From positions 32,001-96,000 of IMG/VR virus record IMGVR_UViG_3300010998_000002: a stretch of DNA of 64,000 bases; one strand, written 5' to 3'. The stretch is from a virus. Lineage: Duplodnaviria; Caudoviricetes. The notes below the pieces were generated by a model. That model searched no databases and was not told the DNA's origin. It saw only the letters and a list, made by a program, of their open reading frames with translations. The translations under genes were made by a program, and so were the position numbers. The first letter of the stretch is position 1, and every line of letters begins with the position of its first letter. This document shows positions 263-32,045 of the stretch, piece after piece.

Positions 263-319
263 CAATGCCCTCTTTCCTATATTATAGTATCATATTTTAC
301 TACATATTGTCAAGAGTAA

Positions 320-354
320 AGGAAAAGGCGTGCCGATTACCCGATGACACGCCC
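320..354 (-). terminator. Intrinsic terminator closing the radical SAM/NSSSSS operon
   Basis: Minus-strand stem GGCGUGUC/GGCACGCC (one G-U) followed by UUUUCCUUU. Confidence 0.75.
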
Positions 355-391
355 AAATAATAAATAGGAAATTCCAAGTCTTACAACAATA

Positions 392-982
392 TTAAAAACA
401 TACACCATCAAATTTTTCTTGAAGTTCTTTATATTTTTGCCATTCAGCATCCTGCTCATATTCTTTCAATTTTGCACATACCGGACAAAAAGATTCTGGC
501 ACTCCTGTATCATAAATATATTCAGATATAATATCGCCATATTCATCATCAAAATCTTCATCAGACATATCTTTATAATCAATATCCAAATCTTCAATAT
601 TTTCATTATCGGTTATTAATTTGCGCTGATAATATTCTATTTGTTCTTGAAGATAATTAGGATTTTTTTCTACATCTTTTTGATACCAGGTCGGAATCTT
701 TTTTGTACCATTTATCATATTTTGTAAATCTAGTATATCTTGTTCGGTTTCTTCTTTTTCAGATACAAAATGCTTTCTCAAATATTGATATTGTTCTTCT
801 TTTGTAGCGCTTTGCCTAAAATCTCTTTCTGCGTGTGCTAAATGAAATTGATGCCCATGCTCGCATTGCTCCATCTCAAAATCGGACAAACTACAATCAA
901 AGCCACTTTCAATTTGACCGCAAATGTTACATAAAAAACTACTACTTGATGAATTGCTTACAAAGCCATTTCGGATTTTCAT
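392..982 (-). CDS. NSSSSS-motif protein 6 (acidic, two CxxC plus CxxxH, possible Zn binding)
   Basis: N-terminus MKIRNGFVSNSSSSSF; CNIC, CEHGH, CPVC. Confidence 0.85.
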   Translation of the reverse strand: MKIRNGFVSNSSSSSFLCNICGQIESGFDCSLSDFEMEQCEHGHQFHLAHAERDFRQSATKEEQYQYLRKHFVSEKEETEQDILDLQNMINGTKKIPTWYQKDVEKNPNYLQEQIEYYQRKLITDNENIEDLDIDYKDMSDEDFDDEYGDIISEYIYDTGVPESFCPVCAKLKEYEQDAEWQKYKELQEKFDGVCF

Positions 983-1016
983 TTTAACCTCTCTTTCCGT
1001 TTTCTGTCTATAAACA

Positions 1017-1490
1017 CTAACCCATGTGGGTATTATAATCTATTGGATTGAATTTTTTAATTATTTTCTCACCGGCATCATACGGTATATAATTATCGTA
1101 TGAATCGTATAATACTAAATCAGTATCAGCAAAATTACTAATAGTATTTCCATACCAATCTTCTATATCAAAATCAGAATTTGAATTATTACTACGTTTC
1201 ATTTCACCAACAGTAGTAATTTTAATATTTTCATCCAATTCCTTTTCGTTATATTCACAAGCAATTCTATCTAAAGATTTTTTGGCATGCTCAATCCTTT
1301 CAACAATTGGGCGTGATTTCTTGTTATATTTTGAATATCCATCAAATAAAGTATAATCAACTACCGATTTAATTTCTGATTTATACGATTGTTCTTTGGC
1401 GAATTTTAATATCTTTTCTGCATCATATTCACCGGAAATTATAAAACTACTTGAACTACTATTACTAATAAATCCGTTTCTTATTTTCAT
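1017..1490 (-). CDS. NSSSSS-motif protein 5
   Basis: N-terminus MKIRNGFISNSSSSSF. Confidence 0.85.
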   Translation of the reverse strand: MKIRNGFISNSSSSSFIISGEYDAEKILKFAKEQSYKSEIKSVVDYTLFDGYSKYNKKSRPIVERIEHAKKSLDRIACEYNEKELDENIKITTVGEMKRSNNSNSDFDIEDWYGNTISNFADTDLVLYDSYDNYIPYDAGEKIIKKFNPIDYNTHMG

Positions 1491-1501
1491 TAATACCCTT
1501 C

Positions 1502-1807
1502 TTATGAATAATATCCATCATATATTAACTCAATTTTACTACCACTCATTAATTTTGCCATATCATCAGATGACAATATTGAAGATAACTCTTTAAATAC
1601 AGTAACACAGGCATCGCCAAGTTTTTCATCTTCTAAATATTTTCTTGCCCATAAACCTACACAATAGCCTTCTTCATCACCGTTAAAAAAATCTAAATCA
1701 CTATATTTTTCCTGTAAATTATAGTAGGTATCTTCATCTGTATGAACTCCGATGATGCAAAAACTTGAACTACTAGAATTACTTACAAAGCCATTTCTCA
1801 ATTTCAT
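1502..1807 (-). CDS. NSSSSS-motif protein 4
   Basis: N-terminus MKLRNGFVSNSSSSSF. Confidence 0.85.
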   Translation of the reverse strand: MKLRNGFVSNSSSSSFCIIGVHTDEDTYYNLQEKYSDLDFFNGDEEGYCVGLWARKYLEDEKLGDACVTVFKELSSILSSDDMAKLMSGSKIELIYDGYYS

Positions 1808-2204
1808 ATTCCCAAACCCTCTTGTATTTCTTTAGTATAGCATGAACTTCTGGATTGTCAAGAGCAAATAACTCATTGTAAAGTTTTGTTTTCTCCGAAC
1901 CCAAAATTACATCCTTTAGAATATAAACGCAACCAAATCCTCTGTCGCCTTCCAATTCTACAAACGCATCTTCATCATACGGACTACCATGACTTCCTTC
2001 AACGGTATCATCTGTCAATGCTGACATTTCTTCATAGAAATCATCACCATCCGATATAAATGATGTATATAATTTTCCGTCTAGTTCATAATAATCATAA
2101 CCACCTTTGGCATCTATTAACTCTTGTGCCTTTTTGACATTATCGCCAGAAATGATAAAACTTGAACTAGAACTATTACTTACAAATCCACTTCTAACCT
2201 TCAT
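1779..2204 (-). CDS. NSSSSS-motif protein 3
   Basis: N-terminus MKVRSGFVSNSSSSSF. Confidence 0.85.
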   Translation of the reverse strand: MKVRSGFVSNSSSSSFIISGDNVKKAQELIDAKGGYDYYELDGKLYTSFISDGDDFYEEMSALTDDTVEGSHGSPYDEDAFVELEGDRGFGCVYILKDVILGSEKTKLYNELFALDNPEVHAILKKYKRVWEYEIEKWLCK

Positions 2205-2532
2205 CTACATACTCCAAGTTCATAGAATTTAAAACTTTATAATAAATATCTTCTTCACCGTATTCAACATTAGCATACATAATAGTTTTATTTTCTTTTA
2301 CAGCATCATAAATAGTAGGTTTCCAACCGCCCGCTTCATCGTATTCTGCTAAATAATCTTCCCAAGAATTATAACCATATTCTTCTACAACTATTTCTCT
2401 AGCCGGTGCAATTGTAAATAAACTTTCAAGAATTTTCTTACAATTAGGGCATTCAAGCAAATTAGCATCATCAATTTGCACTATAAAACTACTTGAACTA
2501 CTATTACTAACAAACCCATTTCTTACTTTCAT
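2194..2532 (-). CDS. NSSSSS-motif protein 2
   Basis: N-terminus MKVRNGFVSNSSSSSF; one CPNC. Confidence 0.85.
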   Translation of the reverse strand: MKVRNGFVSNSSSSSFIVQIDDANLLECPNCKKILESLFTIAPAREIVVEEYGYNSWEDYLAEYDEAGGWKPTIYDAVKENKTIMYANVEYGEEDIYYKVLNSMNLEYVDEG

Positions 2533-2540
2533 TTTATCTC

Positions 2541-2921
2541 CTAGTGATTATTATAAACCCTTACATTAACTTCGCCATCAGAATCATCTTGAATTTCATT
2601 ACAAAATTCTTCCATTTCATACTGTTGATTACAAGTCAAACTATTACAAAATCCGGCACATTCATTACCATATTCAACAATATATTGATTATAATCTAAC
2701 TCATTGATTCCATAGTGTTTTCTTTCCCAATCATCTAAATTAGGTTGACTATTTGCCTTATCACACAAATCATTATATAGTTGTTCTACGGGGTCAAATA
2801 CACCTTCGCCATTTAACAATTCTCTAAATTCTTCCAATGTATATTTAGTTATATCTTGTGGAAGCGTTATTAAAAATGAACTTGACGAACTATTTGACAC
2901 AAAACCATTACGAATTTTCAT
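2541..2921 (-). CDS. NSSSSS-motif protein 1
   Basis: N-terminus MKIRNGFVSNSSSSSF; GGAG RBS. Confidence 0.85.
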   Translation of the reverse strand: MKIRNGFVSNSSSSSFLITLPQDITKYTLEEFRELLNGEGVFDPVEQLYNDLCDKANSQPNLDDWERKHYGINELDYNQYIVEYGNECAGFCNSLTCNQQYEMEEFCNEIQDDSDGEVNVRVYNNH

Positions 2922-2929
2922 TTACTCTC

Positions 2930-4132
2930 CTAATCCAACTTATACATCGGACATTTTCTTTCATTTTTTAATAATATTTCTCTAAATTTTTGTGTTTTTT
3001 CGGACTCCCAAACATCGGTTCTAAAATCCTGTGCATCCAAAACACTTATGCCATTTTGCCACATACCTTCATTTTCACAGAATGAGCAAGCAAAAAATTC
3101 GCCTTTATGATTAATATATGAACTAAAACAACTTGATTCACATGGCTCTGCGCACATTGCTTTTTGTTCATAATCTTTATCATTAGCAATTACTCTTAAA
3201 TAAGCATGCGCCGAACAACTGTCAAAACCTATATTAACACCCTTTTCTTCTGCGTATGCAATAATATGTCGGTATTGCTCATCTGTCAAATGATTAAATT
3301 TGCCAACGCCATTACCTTTAGGTTTGTATTTTAATAATACTACTGCCTTAACCTTACCTTTAATTCTTTCATCAGTAGTCAAATCATCAATAATTGATAA
3401 TATTTTATTATAAGACTTATCGTGTGCTATTGTATGGAAATTAATTTGTCTAACTCCTGCATTATACAACAATTCTACTGCTCTATACGACTTCTCTTTA
3501 TTATAAACCGATACTGCAACAGCACCACAATATTTAGCAGATAATTCGGCATATTCTTCATTCATATCTAAACCATGACATGTATAATTAGGTATTACAT
3601 CAAATTCTCTGCAATATTCAAGCATTCCAAAGAAATCTGGATTTGTGCCTATATCACAAATTCCAAATGCTATTTGTTGTAATAAACCTTCATTATAAAC
3701 CTTCGTTTCTAAAATATCTTCCGGCTCAATATAAATTTGTTTCACTCTTGCAATAATATCGGCTTTTGTATAACAACCTCGCCAAGATAAGTTCATTTCC
3801 GCCTTTATTGGCTCTTTACCACTCTTAAAAGTTGTTACAATAACAGTTTTTGCAACCTTATGAAAAATATCCCTAAACTCATCAAATGTCATATTATGAG
3901 TTTTTTCAACAGCACCGTTACACTTGTAACATTCTGGACATTGCCCCATGCATTTACCGGCAGAAATTTCTAAATCTAAAATTTCTGGCATTGGAGCATA
4001 TAACGGATTTTCATCTTTTGTTCTGCCCCAACGAGCAAAATATCCTGTTTCTTTATTAAATAAAGAATTATAATATTGCGACCTTACCATTTTGGATTTA
4101 TCGTTTTCTATCATTAACATTCCGTTAGCCAT
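2930..4132 (-). CDS. Radical SAM protein with C-terminal Twitch/SPASM-like Cys cluster
   Basis: CMGQCPEC (CxxxCxxC); C-terminal EPCESSCFSSYINHKGEFFACSFC...CP. Confidence 0.9.
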   Translation of the reverse strand: MANGMLMIENDKSKMVRSQYYNSLFNKETGYFARWGRTKDENPLYAPMPEILDLEISAGKCMGQCPECYKCNGAVEKTHNMTFDEFRDIFHKVAKTVIVTTFKSGKEPIKAEMNLSWRGCYTKADIIARVKQIYIEPEDILETKVYNEGLLQQIAFGICDIGTNPDFFGMLEYCREFDVIPNYTCHGLDMNEEYAELSAKYCGAVAVSVYNKEKSYRAVELLYNAGVRQINFHTIAHDKSYNKILSIIDDLTTDERIKGKVKAVVLLKYKPKGNGVGKFNHLTDEQYRHIIAYAEEKGVNIGFDSCSAHAYLRVIANDKDYEQKAMCAEPCESSCFSSYINHKGEFFACSFCENEGMWQNGISVLDAQDFRTDVWESEKTQKFREILLKNERKCPMYKLD

Positions 4133-4159
4133 CTATTTCCTCTTTCTTCTTATGATAAA

Positions 4160-4193
4160 ATCATATCAAATTTTTTAATTAAAGTCAAGAGTA
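4160..4193 (-). promoter_or_regulatory. Sigma70-type promoter of the radical SAM operon (class I, TACTCTTGAC)
   Basis: TTGACT-N17-TATGAT with extended TG, 28 nt upstream of the start codon. Confidence 0.75.
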
Positions 4194-4373
4194 GATATTT
4201 TCTTTTATCATTTGAGATATAATTTCATTACAATCTAAAATTTTTTCTTCAATCAATTGATGATTATCACAATATAATGGGCATTGCATACAAAAACCAA
4301 TACAAATTTTTTCTTTAGTTTCTGTATCGTATGTTATCGGAAATTCATCGTATTTATATAACTTAATTTTCAT
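4185..4373 (-). CDS. Small Cys-containing hypothetical protein
   Basis: 62 aa ORF coupled to the MTase stop; CxxxCxxCxxxC. Confidence 0.55.
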   Translation of the reverse strand: MKIKLYKYDEFPITYDTETKEKICIGFCMQCPLYCDNHQLIEEKILDCNEIISQMIKENIYS

Positions 4374-5152
4374 TTTCTTTCAACCTTTTAACTGCTATAT
4401 CATAATATTTCTTTTCTAATTCAATGCCAATAAAACGTCTATGCACATTTTGGCATGCTAGACAGGTACTTCCTACACCCATAGTATTGTCCATCACCAA
4501 GCACCCCCCCATTTGTATAAGTTTTGACTAAATATTCTAAAAGCGCAACAGGTTTTTCGTTTGTGTGTAATTTCTTTCCAGCCGGAGTTTCCGGAAAATC
4601 TAATAAAACGTCTGTCGGATAATTTGTATATTCTCTTGTAAATTCAGCCTTATGCGATGGTCTTTCTCCTGCGATTGTACCAAATCTACCTTTGCCTGCC
4701 TTAATAGTTTTATTGCATTCAATTAAACCCTGTGGATTATAAGTCATTCGTTTATCACCTAATTGAGAAGCATGCCCCATCGGTGCTTTTGAAAATACTA
4801 AAATATATTCACATTTTGTCATTGGTCTATTTTTGGCATGAACAAAATTTGTACTATTATTTTTAACCCATACCCATTGATATTTAAACAACGGAAGATT
4901 TGAAGATAATAAGTATGGCATAAATTGTCCACTTGCAAATAATACTATACTACCGGTATCACTTATTAATTGTTCGTATTTTTTCCATAATTCTTTTGCC
5001 GGTAAAATCTTATCCCAACTTGATGCAGTAGTTCCAAATGGCAAATCACATAAAATCATATCAACCTTAACACCTTTTGCAATTAAACCGTTCATTACTT
5101 GCATACAATCTTCGTTAAAAACTATACCATCTTTAAAAACCTTACTAATCAT
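4363..5152 (-). pseudogene. N4C/N6A DNA methyltransferase (beta class), frameshifted at a G7 tract
   Basis: DMILCDLPF catalytic motif and HTNEKPVALLEYLV; the SAM-binding motif (VMDNTMGVGST...RRFIGIELEKKYYDIAVKRL) lies in another frame after C7 at 4504-4510; likely start ATG 5152 after GAGGGA. Confidence 0.85.
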
Positions 5153-5314
5153 ATCTTCCCTCAAACTTTCTTTATTGCATCCATATTATACGATTGTTTT
5201 TTAAAGAAGTCAAGACAAGTCATCATTTTGAATAAAAACTCTTAAGTTTGAGCATTGATATAAAAATACCTTCATCCGACACTTGCTATGACAGCGTTTC
5301 AGAGAAGGTAAAAT

Positions 5315-7846: not shown

Positions 7847-8309
7847 AATCCTTTCCTTTCTGATATATTTTTTGATTTGAAGTTGCTAATCGCACGCCTT
7901 CTTGTATATTTTTTGTAGTATATAAATCCGGTATATATGCACCACATTTTATATAATCACAGTATTCTTTAAATGCTGGTTGAATTTTTGCCAAATCTTC
8001 TCTGGCAAACAACCATATTTTTTTATTATAAAACGACAAATAACTTAATATTTCTTTAACGGCATTTTCGTCTTGATGATTAAAACTTCCACCTAAAAGA
8101 AATATATTATCTATCAAAGAATCAAATCTTCCAAAATAGCCTTCAATAGTATCTCTCCATGAATGCCACTCTTGACCGTTATGAAAATCTAATAGTTCCG
8201 GATTGCAACAATCTTTACAATGTGGCTTGTTGCATCCGGCAACAAATAAATCTAAAGATTTAGTTGCCGGACTATATTCAATATAATTTATATTTAACAA
8301 CTTACCCAT
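7839..8309 (-). CDS. nrdG: Anaerobic ribonucleotide reductase activase
   Basis: GCNKPHCKDCCNPE, DYIKCGAY, ATSNQKI; adjacent to nrdD. Confidence 0.9.
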   Translation of the reverse strand: MGKLLNINYIEYSPATKSLDLFVAGCNKPHCKDCCNPELLDFHNGQEWHSWRDTIEGYFGRFDSLIDNIFLLGGSFNHQDENAVKEILSYLSFYNKKIWLFAREDLAKIQPAFKEYCDYIKCGAYIPDLYTTKNIQEGVRLATSNQKIYQKGKDYV

Positions 8310-10276
8310 TATAACTCCACTTCTCCGTAGAATTGTCGTTGTGGAAAATCGTATTCTCGGCGTTCAGGAATCCAATTATCTACTTTGGTTAAAAAGCCTA
8401 CTACTCTTGTATAAGTACCTGTTATTTTACCACCACAAATCGGACAAGCATCAACATTACCTACTGACATGTGATTATTTTCACAACATTGTAATACTAA
8501 ATTAACGGCAAAATATACAACACCTTCTTTAACACTAGCATAGATTAAATTCTGCATAACATCAACATCCTTAATCTCTTGGTCTATGTTAAGATGACAT
8601 ATTGCTCCACCAGAAAAATATCTGTCAAATAAAGCCTGTATTTTAATTCTATCAAACATATTTACTCTTTTAATTAAAGGAATAAACTGATTTGAATAAA
8701 GTGTATAATTTTCATTATAACCTAAAGCCTTATCTTTTTTAGCCAATTTCACAGATACATTTTCACCTGGAATTTGCTCGCAATTATGTGGTGCTTTATA
8801 TTTATCTTGTAACTCGGCATTAGTGGTATTAATTACATTAAGAATTTCAAGAACATAATCCTGTCCTTCCTTTGTAGTAATGTCATAACCTAATATTTCT
8901 AACGCTTCATATAAACCAATAACACCAAAAGTAGAATATTGTCTTTTAAGTTCCATATATCCTAATGAATATAATGGCTGGCTTCCTGCCTTAATTGTAC
9001 GTTTAATAATATTTCTTTTTGCCTGATTAACAGTTTGACAATCCAAAACCAAATCTTTTAATCTGTGTAAAAATTCATCTCTTGGATTTTCTGCCTGCCT
9101 TTTACAAATTGTAGCAAGTTGTGGAAGATTGCCTGTTGCAACTCCTAGACTACCAATTTTTGTACTACCCGAACCAAAAGAATTAAAATATTCTCCATTA
9201 TCTCTTTCACTTCTTAATCTGCAACACGAACTTAATGTTGAAGATTTGCCAGCATAAATATTAATAAATCCAAACTGTAAATTCTTTTTAGCGATAAATG
9301 CTAAAAATTCATCATCTTGAATTTCATTATTTTCATCAATAGAAAAACAAGCAGTTGTAACCGGAAATGTAATTGGTTTTCTTGCCATTTCTCTATTCAT
9401 AATATCTAAATAAATTTCTTGTGCCTTTTTAATATTTTCTTTTGTAGCAGAATATTTAACATCATCTATCATTAAAGAATAAGCATCGCCTTCAAGCATA
9501 CCATCAAGAAAATTATTATCATAAACAGATACGTTGCTAAATAATGATTGCGAACCACGATAAGGTTGATTTAAACGATAAATAAACCCTGTTAGCATTG
9601 ATTCCATATATTGCCAACAAGCATTATCATCAACCATAGGAACATGGGCATCTTTCTTTGTTTTTAACATTTTATCCATATAAATAGATATAACAATCAA
9701 AAGGTCTGCAAGTCCTGTAGCACCTAATGTTGAATTTCCGGCAATAAGTGAAAATAACTCAATTTGTCCTAAAAATGACATTAAGTTTTTAGGTGGCTCA
9801 CTTCCACCACGACCATCAAATACTCCTGGAATACCATTAACTGCTGTATCGTATGTGGAATAATTAAAGCAATATGCCATTGCAGAAGAAAATCCTGTAA
9901 AATCATTTATATACATTCTGCCTGTAATTTGACTTTCTACAATCCAATCTGCTTTTTCTTTAGTTTCGGTTTTCTTTACTTCTTTCCATAATCTATAATA
10001 ACTATTAATTAAATGAAAGGGTTTTGCCGTTTCAATCTTATGAGATATAACAGATTTATCCGTAACATTAGCATTGGCATCAACCGATACATCAGCGGTA
10101 GTCATTGCTTTAAAAAATTTCTTTGATGATTTTGAAATATCTAATTGACTTCCAATACCGTTTTCTTCAATTAAATCTGCGCCATATTTTTTTTCTAATC
10201 CTAGCATTAAATCTTTAAAATCTTTTTTGTACGATTGTGATTCTAAAAATTTCTGTAAATTTGTCTGTTTTGTCAT
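8309..10276 (-). CDS. nrdD: Class III anaerobic ribonucleotide reductase (no ATP cone)
   Basis: TFPVTT, SSCCRL, EQIPGE, SGGAICH, CPICG, TRVVGFL glycyl-radical motif. Confidence 0.93.
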   Translation of the reverse strand: MTKQTNLQKFLESQSYKKDFKDLMLGLEKKYGADLIEENGIGSQLDISKSSKKFFKAMTTADVSVDANANVTDKSVISHKIETAKPFHLINSYYRLWKEVKKTETKEKADWIVESQITGRMYINDFTGFSSAMAYCFNYSTYDTAVNGIPGVFDGRGGSEPPKNLMSFLGQIELFSLIAGNSTLGATGLADLLIVISIYMDKMLKTKKDAHVPMVDDNACWQYMESMLTGFIYRLNQPYRGSQSLFSNVSVYDNNFLDGMLEGDAYSLMIDDVKYSATKENIKKAQEIYLDIMNREMARKPITFPVTTACFSIDENNEIQDDEFLAFIAKKNLQFGFINIYAGKSSTLSSCCRLRSERDNGEYFNSFGSGSTKIGSLGVATGNLPQLATICKRQAENPRDEFLHRLKDLVLDCQTVNQAKRNIIKRTIKAGSQPLYSLGYMELKRQYSTFGVIGLYEALEILGYDITTKEGQDYVLEILNVINTTNAELQDKYKAPHNCEQIPGENVSVKLAKKDKALGYNENYTLYSNQFIPLIKRVNMFDRIKIQALFDRYFSGGAICHLNIDQEIKDVDVMQNLIYASVKEGVVYFAVNLVLQCCENNHMSVGNVDACPICGGKITGTYTRVVGFLTKVDNWIPERREYDFPQRQFYGEVEL

Positions 10277-31826: not shown

Positions 31827-32045
31827 TTACTTATCTTCTTTTTTAAATATATCGTTTATAATATCAGTTGCTTTTTCTTTTATGATAGCAAAGATTTCTT
31901 CTTTCTTTTCTTCAAGAAATGAAACAACTGCTTCTTTAACTTTTTCTAAAATTTCATCTTTGTTTTCAAGTAATTTTGCTTTATAGTTTTCAATCTGTTT
32001 AGCAATTACTTTTTCTACGATTCTGTCCAAGAATTTCATACTCAT
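31827..32045 (-). CDS. Small coiled-coil protein
   Basis: AAGGAG RBS. Confidence 0.65.
   Translation of the reverse strand: MSMKFLDRIVEKVIAKQIENYKAKLLENKDEILEKVKEAVVSFLEEKKEEIFAIIKEKATDIINDIFKKEDK

Follow-up and report, generated by a model that had tools for sequence, protein, structure and literature searches.

What does a virus gain by encoding one radical S-adenosylmethionine (SAM) enzyme together with a series of small proteins that are alike only at their N-termini? This question is raised by a locus in a 64,000-nucleotide stretch of viral DNA (positions 32,001 to 96,000 of IMG/VR record IMGVR_UViG_3300010998_000002; hereafter, the window), in which a radical SAM gene on the minus strand (2930-4132) is followed by six tightly packed open reading frames (ORFs) that span 392-2921. 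All six ORFs open with the 16-residue sequence MK[ILV]R[NS]GF[VI]SNSSSSSF, referred to here as the tag, and we refer to the proteins that carry it as clients. An initial annotation of this DNA, made from the letters alone, had proposed that the tag is a recognition sequence for the enzyme. Our analyses support that proposal to different degrees for its different parts: the pairing of enzyme and tag is an observation that extends to many phages, the manner of binding is a prediction, and modification of the tag by the enzyme is a reading that we consider reasonably probable.

The Tag and Its Clients in the Window

A degenerate DNA pattern for the GF[VI]SNSSSSSF portion of the tag matched the window six times and gave no match in 100 shuffles. 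In the complete 108,612-bp genome the same tag pattern matched only these six ORFs, all of them in the operon. The tag is conserved at the protein level, with the tag codons of the six ORFs having 70% nucleotide identity versus 91% amino-acid identity, and their pairwise comparison giving 94 synonymous and 21 non-synonymous differences.

The client nearest the enzyme gene (2541-2921; 126 residues) has its tag at 2874-2921. It is followed by clients of 112 residues (2194-2532; tag at 2485-2532), 141 residues (1779-2204; tag at 2157-2204; overlapping the preceding ORF by 11 nt), 101 residues (1502-1807; tag at 1760-1807; overlapping by 29 nt), 157 residues (1017-1490; tag at 1443-1490) and 196 residues (392-982; tag at 935-982), all on the minus strand. 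Past residue 18 the six proteins had chance-level similarity only, with raw local alignment scores of 26-46, and all were acidic (isoelectric point, pI, 4.1-5.1) and rich in tyrosine (6-9%). Two of them contain CxxC pairs, one pair in the 112-residue client and two in the 196-residue client. The near-invariant motif, the dissimilar acidic and Tyr-rich sequences behind it and the CxxC pairs had all been described in the initial annotation and were borne out.

Co-Occurrence of the Enzyme and the Tag

A search with an alignment of 19 diverse homologues of the enzyme yielded 80 phage loci, and tag ORFs were present within 8 kb of the enzyme gene at 68 of them. These 68 loci held 285 tagged ORFs, every one on the strand of the enzyme gene and 232 of them downstream of it. 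The 12 apparent exceptions comprised two loci with a GHV variant of the tag (GHVSNSS; L013 and L014), one with a GTG start (L067), one with tagged genes approximately 8.5 kb off (L039), four of the RB16/KP15 type and four contig fragments. In RB16, KP15 and CfP1, the three phages of that type that were searched, two tagged genes were found approximately 20 kb from the enzyme; in Escherichia coli phage RB16 these are RB16p106 (L144:1111-1578) and RB16p111 (L144:4989-5501), and the enzyme is RB16p156. As T4-like enterobacterial phages place their tagged genes at this distance, linkage in an operon is common and not obligatory.

The association also held when the search began from the tag. A codon-restricted DNA pattern identified 50 stretches in 40 viral contigs, which constitute a sample and not a census, and the enzyme was present in 30 of these 40 contigs found by tag DNA alone (8 that were already among the enzyme loci and 22 of the 32 others). 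Among the newly searched contigs that were at least 90% complete, seven of seven encoded the enzyme, and the contigs lacking it were all at most 36% complete. Most enzyme-tag distances were below 10 kb, with some tagged genes in large genomes lying 40-170 kb away. Motif proteins that occur mostly without a linked radical SAM gene, an outcome the initial annotation had allowed for, were not what we found in either direction of search.

A set of 185,579 cellular species genomes contained only 18 loci, all on contigs of metagenome-assembled genomes and 12 with adjacent tags. When the same-strand neighbors at 81 loci were clustered, the enzyme and the tagged ORFs were the only conserved components, with the next family present in 8 loci; no protease, exporter, immunity gene or reductase was conserved among these neighbors. 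Together, these data indicated that the enzyme and the tag are a real and widespread two-component phage module.

The RB16 genes RB16p106 and RB16p111 flank RB16p109, which encodes a 739-residue protein with an N-terminal vWA domain, approximately 20 kb from the enzyme gene.

Conservation of the Tag and Diversity of the Clients

In a sequence logo of 327 unique tagged proteins, M1, N10, S11 and S12 were invariant and K2, R4, G6, F7, V8, S9, S15 and F16 were each at least 94% conserved. Position 5 was free, positions 17-18 were hydrophobic, no acidic residue appeared at positions 1-18, and the tag was always at the exact N-terminus. Across 378 tags, position 7 was occupied by F, H, Y or W, or in two cases by M, and position 9 by S or A. 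The remainder of the clients was very different in character. Without their tags, 328 clients fell into 92 clusters, with 58 singletons, and had a median pI of 4.7; the median client length was about 129 residues. The 112-residue client of the window is a singleton after tag removal, and the family of the 196-residue client is present in 22 of the fetched loci.

A search of 1.84 billion representative sequences with a profile in which the tag predominates gave 26,062 clusters at 50% identity with E-values of 0.001 or better, and the tag was at residue 1 in 145 of the 150 best matches. Eight of these 150 (P0156-P0163) have two tags, the second following an internal MK.R, and may be products of read-through, mis-called adjacent genes or true tandem fusions. 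The profile search also found a sister form of the tag, MKVRLDFVTNSSSSSY, in protein P0164.

Searches of the six window clients against Pfam, NCBIfam and PHROGs identified only phrog_7397, a family of unknown function that was matched through the tag. Among 102 client representatives, 14 matched phrog_7397 and one had a Pfam match (DUF4325); no sulfatase domain was identified in this set by Pfam. Look-alikes of the 196-residue client in the ESM Atlas were viral hypothetical proteins only. In the AlphaFold2 (AF2) model of the client at 2541-2921 (mean predicted local distance difference test, pLDDT, 76.5), residues 1-10 are disordered and a small alpha/beta domain starts with a strand at residues 13-19; Foldseek found nothing below an E-value of 0.05 for this model in the PDB. 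Based on this model, the tag would be partly a free N-terminal arm and partly anchored in the client fold. Because residues 1-10 were disordered and no PDB match was found, the motif is not the first strand of any characterized domain, which had been offered as a trivial explanation of it. The 92 clusters, the single Pfam match and the modeled domain are in keeping with the proposal that the clients are folded, diversified and mutually unrelated proteins.

In orthologues of the client at 2541-2921, the C-terminal His is invariant and in most is preceded by Asn (...NH); Y80, Y84, G85 and E87 are also invariant.

Sequence and Predicted Fold of the Enzyme

The 400-residue enzyme has a CxxxCxxC motif (C61, C65 and C68), and these positions were Cys in 95-98 of 99 aligned homologues. 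It was assigned to phrog_7293, a family of unknown function (E 5e-74), and NCBIfam returned weak matches to MftC and ScmE. More than 600 homologues were found, some of which have Pfam radical SAM or SPASM matches; the window enzyme had no match to PF04055 at E-values up to 1, and many homologues with 40-58% identity to it have a precomputed match.

The 99 homologues had further conserved cysteines at C306, C331, C349 and C394 (C352 varies), and the enzyme contains the hairpin motif C331-X12-G344-X4-C349. The CX2CX5CX3C block of SPASM domains was absent from the same alignment, and Pfam SPASM (PF13186) scored 10.5 bits on the enzyme (E 0.8) versus a cut-off of 21.5. Since there are four conserved cysteines and a CX12GX4C hairpin, and no CX2CX5CX3C block, the C-terminal domain appears to be twitch-like, with one auxiliary cluster, and not a full SPASM domain. 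The initial annotation had named the enzyme a radical SAM protein and had spoken in general of SPASM/Twitch domains; the radical SAM fold, the CxxxCxxC motif and a twitch-like domain are borne out, and a full seven-Cys SPASM is not.

The AF2 model of the enzyme (pLDDT 92.4) is a partial TIM barrel with the twitch-like domain at its C-terminal end. Approximately 47 residues precede the barrel and form four beta strands (~6-35) and no helix; no winged-helix recognition element (RRE) of the kind found in maturases of peptides that are made by ribosomes and modified post-translationally (RiPPs) was present in this part of the model, and there was no RRE-type Pfam match. Among the best 1000 solved chains ranked by Foldseek, 240 aligned to the model at a Z-score of at least 8, and all 50 listed structural-match entries were radical SAM enzymes, in keeping with a partial TIM-barrel core. 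The fold matches included SuiB (Z 24.2), SkfB (22.5), the anaerobic sulfatase-maturating enzyme anSME (20.2), CteB and PqqE (both 19.5) and ChlB (18.5), at 12-16% identity. A profile of the enzyme had no significant match among PDB sequences, the best being BtrN (E 0.038) through a C-terminal helix. The enzyme was placed in no curated family, and its predicted fold is nearest to those of the peptide maturases SuiB, SkfB and anSME.

Two variations within the enzyme family were observed. The window enzyme and its closest relatives have an insertion of approximately 50 residues in the barrel (~96-147; strands and a helix in the model) that most homologues do not have. In the RB16/KP15-type enzymes, including RB16p156 (L129:6965-8119), Cx7CxxC spacing (C-NGPAGKL-C-GF-C) replaces CxxxCxxC.

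Prediction of an Enzyme-Tag Complex

A complex with SAM and two clusters was modeled from the alignment of the enzyme and residues 1-45 of the client. The model reached an ipSAE of 0.88 over three runs, compared with a best value of 0.00 for three controls; at least 59% of the contacts agreed between runs and the partner had a pLDDT of at least 50. The pass mark that this exceeds is reached by 58 of 80 solved complexes and by 2 of 110 mismatched pairs, rates that are only rough here because our own alignments and ligands were used, and a pass in the prediction speaks neither to affinity nor to catalysis. In the model, tag residues 1-18 touch enzyme residues 29-35, 153-157, 180-184, 202-206, 229-233, 262-267 and 300-308, as well as 326-333, 337, 339 and 349-351. 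Tag residues 2-7 pair with the enzyme strand at 30-35. K2 is in contact with position 42, which is Asp in 86 of the 99 homologues, and F7 with 182, 203 and 204 deep in the barrel; the remainder of the tag passes between the twitch domain and the ends of the barrel strands.

Changes in the tag were concerted within some genomes. All four tags of L013 and L014 have F7H, and only the enzymes of these two loci have Q153S, at a residue in contact with the tag in the model; all three tags of L075 have both G6S and S9A. We regard these changes as a hint, suggestive only, that the enzyme reads the tag. Along with the co-occurrence in both directions and a complex model that surpassed its controls, they favor the view that the motif is a recognition tag for this clade of radical SAM enzymes.

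Proposed Mechanism and Alternative Explanations

The explanation we favor, with somewhat more confidence than doubt, is that the enzyme binds the N-terminal tag of its unrelated clients and modifies the tag by radical chemistry, and that the tag is retained. Tag residues 2-7 would be captured as an extra strand on the enzyme strand at 30-35, with K2 and R4 facing conserved acidic residues, and G6-S15 would be threaded between the barrel and the twitch domain. A 5'-deoxyadenosyl radical would then bring about a covalent change in the tag. The most likely site would be within G6-N10, around F7-V8-S9-N10, in preference to the distal Ser run on which the initial annotation had placed the modification, because G6 and F7, and F7 above all, lie deepest in the modeled barrel. 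Our preferred candidate chemistry would be an aromatic-to-C-beta crosslink over F7-x-S9, as in triceptides, followed by conversion of Ser to formylglycine and then by epimerization. The occurrence of Ala at position 9 argues against a chemistry that needs the hydroxyl there, and Ser oxidation, if it occurs, might be at the invariant S11 or S12.

The modified tag would stay on the mature client and so constitute a common N-terminal mark on many different proteins; retention is suggested by there being no protease or exporter conserved nearby and by residues 13-19 being the first strand of the client fold. We give about even chances to a more specific form of this proposal, in which every MKxRxGFVSNSSSSSF protein receives from one enzyme an identical covalent modification at its N-terminus (a cyclophane staple between Phe and Ser, say, or an aldehyde derived from Ser), and the module is a general viral protein-tagging system and not a RiPP pathway. 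As the clients are small, acidic, fast-diversifying and encoded among replication genes, our guess is that their role is in host take-over or counter-defense.

Several considerations weigh against modification of the tag by the enzyme. That the enzyme acts catalytically on the tag, by which chemistry and to what biological end, is inferred. The complex score is a measure of model confidence and may partly reflect the solved SuiB-SuiA, anSME-peptide and ChlB-ChlA complexes. The 55-residue contact set includes 30 of the 57 enzyme positions with a conservation of at least 90% (odds ratio 14, p 5e-15); this is not independent proof of the modeled binding, as conserved barrel-lining residues are expected in any enzyme. 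The client modeled alone has a core strand at 13-19; for residues 1-18 to bind, the client would have to be unfolded or nascent, or the contacts fewer than in the model of the complex. The co-variation consists of single evolutionary events and has exceptions, as H7 and Y7 tags occur alongside a Q153 enzyme (L057) and enzymes with Y229 occur with ordinary tags. Lastly, one modification site alone would leave the invariance of the whole of N10-S15 unexplained.

Other functions of the tag were weighed against the same evidence. The tag might only dock, with the variable domains recruiting host or phage targets and the enzyme modifying a third party or some other part of the client. Such an adaptor would make sense of one docking motif on many unrelated small domains; the membership of residues 13-19 in the client fold would tether the domain beside the enzyme, and the predicted binding fits pure docking equally. 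We nevertheless consider it unlikely, since the modeled tag takes up the barrel from the SAM site to the twitch domain, in contact with invariant residues of the active site, and leaves no obvious room for a second substrate, and the strict conservation of the small polar residues 9-15 exceeds the usual need of a docking strand. It is rather less probable in our estimation that the tag is a sorting signal read by another machine (for capsid packaging, secretion or targeted proteolysis), to which the enzyme is accessory at most. Diverse small phage proteins at variable loci with a common short, strictly N-terminal sequence would fit such a signal, as would the tagged genes that are 20-170 kb from the enzyme. 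However, near-complete genomes always had the tag and the enzyme together, no other partner gene was conserved at the loci, the operon is among replication and nucleotide-metabolism genes and not structural genes, and the predicted complex is specific to the enzyme. The tag also lacks any acidic residue such as the T4 prohead protease site requires.

The nearest enzyme folds are those of RiPP maturases and the aromatic-x-Ser motif of the tag resembles triceptide cores (PMC11499958), both of which would suit a tag that is a core peptide, modified and then cut off from a variable C-terminal follower that is discarded. We judge this very improbable, given that the loci have no conserved protease, exporter or immunity gene, that the variable parts are folded and individually conserved domains, and that 2-13 different followers for one identical core would serve no evident need of the phage. 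Already disfavored, and to our minds scarcely credible, is the notion that the tag does no more than supply a common fold with its opening strand and loop, its linkage to the radical SAM gene being incidental. It draws on the strand predicted at 13-19 and the hydrophobic positions 17-18, and has against it the disorder of residues 1-10 in the client-alone model, the unrelatedness of the following domains (92 clusters, no common Pfam family), the failure to match any known fold, and a two-way co-occurrence with 285 of 285 ORFs on the same strand that is far beyond chance.

Two further candidates were rejected. Glycyl-radical activation was suggested by the likeness of R-x-G-F to RVxG[FY]; it was set aside on account of the different spacing, the N-terminal position of the motif, and the twitch domain and peptide-maturase fold of the enzyme. 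A phosphate-binding loop (PP-loop, or a flavodoxin-like or low-molecular-weight protein tyrosine phosphatase-like strand and loop) was discarded as the following domains are unrelated and residues 1-10 are disordered.

Genome Setting and Layout of the Locus

The source is a large tailed phage, probably with an anaerobic host. The complete genome is terminally repeated, and the window encodes DNA polymerase, helicases, primase and an anaerobic ribonucleotide reductase, as well as tail, portal and terminase proteins. The operon is at the edge of the block of replication and nucleotide-metabolism genes and adjoins a DNA methyltransferase gene. A nucleotide search of the operon against GenBank phages gave no match. 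The NrdD-type anaerobic ribonucleotide reductase (8309-10276, minus strand) is approximately 4 kb from the operon and suggests an anaerobic host, which would suit an oxygen-sensitive radical SAM enzyme.

Within the operon the arrangement given in the initial annotation was confirmed, with the radical SAM gene and the six ORFs separated by gaps of 8, 8, 11 and 34 nt or, at two junctions, by the overlaps noted above. It had also ascribed the operon to one promoter and one terminator, and each of these was upheld in part. A sigma-70-like promoter candidate at 4188-4160 (minus strand; TTGACT-N17-TATGAT, with an extended -10 TG), identified by consensus match only, is approximately 28 nt upstream of the start codon of the radical SAM gene, and a ribosome-binding site, AAGAGGAAA, precedes the ATG. 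Promoter-like matches are frequent in the AT-rich DNA of the window (61 found versus 42 expected), and those at 3289-3261 and 1861-1834 inside the block are stronger than the candidate. Because promoter-like sites also occur inside the block, a single transcript from one promoter is plausible and no firmer than that. At the other end, a terminator-like hairpin at 320-354 (minus strand), 38 nt past the last stop codon, has a 9-bp GC-rich stem and an 11-nt loop followed by the U-rich tail UUUUCCUUU. The predicted fold of 312-362 (minus strand) has a dG of -14.4 kcal/mol (z -2.9); a terminator consensus scan of the window did not call the hairpin.

Immediately upstream of the radical SAM gene is a 62-residue Cys-rich ORF (4185-4373, minus strand) with six Cys, including CIGFCMQCPLYC; it overlaps the promoter candidate and is not conserved at other enzyme loci. 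The DNA methyltransferase gene (4363-5164, minus strand) is apparently split into a 241-residue ORF and an overlapping 49-residue ORF with the C-terminal motifs, which fits a frameshift at a G tract that the initial annotation had proposed.

Novelty and Significance

A literature search on the motif, on radical SAM enzymes with RB16 or RB43, on phage radical SAM/SPASM proteins and on viral RiPPs, which covered few subscription journals, found no description of the module. A cyanophage paper reported a different "radical SAM maturase" among sugar genes. If the proposed mechanism is correct, the module would be a new post-translational modification system in phages, in which a 16-residue address at the N-terminus directs one radical enzyme to many whole proteins that are unrelated to each other. 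The small effectors marked by a single enzyme would form a fast-evolving repertoire, amounting to tens of thousands of protein families in public data. Almost all of the ~26,000 client clusters are proteins of unknown function from large phages, and a common handle would offer a direct experimental route into this dark matter. The module is present in cultured phages of E. coli, Klebsiella, Enterobacter and Cronobacter (RB16, RB43, KP15 and relatives), a group that includes phages under study for therapy, and ordinary genetics and mass spectrometry could address it there. The tag-enzyme pair might also serve as a tool for site-specific protein modification.

Comparison with Known Systems

Of the systems with which the module might be confused, the capsid-targeting sequence of T4 internal proteins is the one without a radical SAM enzyme. 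It is a short N-terminal signal that the prohead scaffold recognizes and the prohead protease cleaves at a Glu-containing site. The two systems are alike in having unrelated small phage proteins, variable loci and a conserved, strictly N-terminal sequence. They differ in that the tag described here is found together with a radical SAM enzyme that it is predicted to bind, and in that the tag genes lie among early or replication genes.

Actinobacterial conflict systems with an FxSxx-COOH motif have a radical SAM/SPASM gene next to small proteins that diverge rapidly (Kaur et al. 2020, PMC7159879), so that both there and here one short terminal F-x-S motif is kept by diverging small proteins associated with a radical SAM enzyme. 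The FxSxx-COOH motif is C-terminal and is released by a zincin metallopeptidase, and the systems that have it are linked to vWA/AP-ATPase systems (PMC7159879). In the module the motif is N-terminal, no peptidase is linked at the loci, and the carriers are phages and not Actinobacteria. RiPP clusters in general differ in a similar manner, as the phage loci have no linked leader peptidase or exporter and the clients, with their median of ~129 residues, are predicted to be folded and are not small precursors.

With regard to the enzyme itself, the four conserved cysteines and the CX9-15GX4C hairpin resemble those of twitch enzymes (BtrN, SkfB and MoaA-like proteins), a likeness suggested by sequence and accompanied by the second-highest of the fold matches given above, that to SkfB (Z 22.5). 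Like the phage enzyme as we envisage it, anSME (AtsB; PDB 4K36-4K39) acts on a whole protein and not on a RiPP, its target being a Ser or Cys within a short motif; its fold match was at a Z-score of ~20, and with so many Ser in the tag, oxidation of one of them is a candidate chemistry. However, the sulfatase motif (C/S)xPxR or (C/S)xAxR is absent, the tag logo having no Pro or Arg of that kind after any Ser, and the phage enzyme has no family-level match in NCBIfam or Pfam. Further, the SPASM domain of anSME is complete and carries two auxiliary clusters, and its clients are a single family, the sulfatases, versus thousands of unrelated clients here.

The triceptide synthases (ChlB, HaaB, HtkB and XyeB; PDB 9GMC) act on aromatic-X-X motifs, which F7-V8-S9 of the tag resembles as a pattern match only. 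These synthases accept H, Y and W at the aromatic position and Ala at the third (PMC11499958), and the tag variants have H, Y and W at position 7 and A at position 9; in addition, F7 is deepest in the modeled barrel. The fold match to ChlB (Z 18.5) was below those to SuiB and SkfB, and the phage enzyme had no match to the triceptide maturase families of NCBIfam at E-values up to 1. Triceptide precursors are small peptides with leaders and often repeated motifs, and the invariant N10-S15 would not be explained by cyclophane chemistry.

The best fold match to the enzyme was SuiB (StrB) in complex with SuiA (PDB 5V1T; 314 residues aligned, including the N-terminal part). SuiB is the radical SAM/SPASM maturase that crosslinks Lys and Trp of streptide, and thus forms a radical C-C crosslink on a short motif, and in SuiB-SuiA, as in our predicted complex, the substrate peptide lies across the barrel opening. 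The identity of SuiB to the phage enzyme is only 14%, with no match at the sequence level. SuiB has an RRE domain of approximately 100 residues and two auxiliary clusters; the phage enzyme has an all-beta N-terminal element of ~47 residues and one four-Cys set. SuiA, a small peptide, has a leader and is secreted, whereas the motif studied here is the N-terminus of whole, diverse proteins with no linked protease or exporter. Based on these likenesses, we propose that the module may represent a new form of radical SAM protein or peptide maturation, analogous to the short-motif readers SuiB, anSME and the triceptide synthases.

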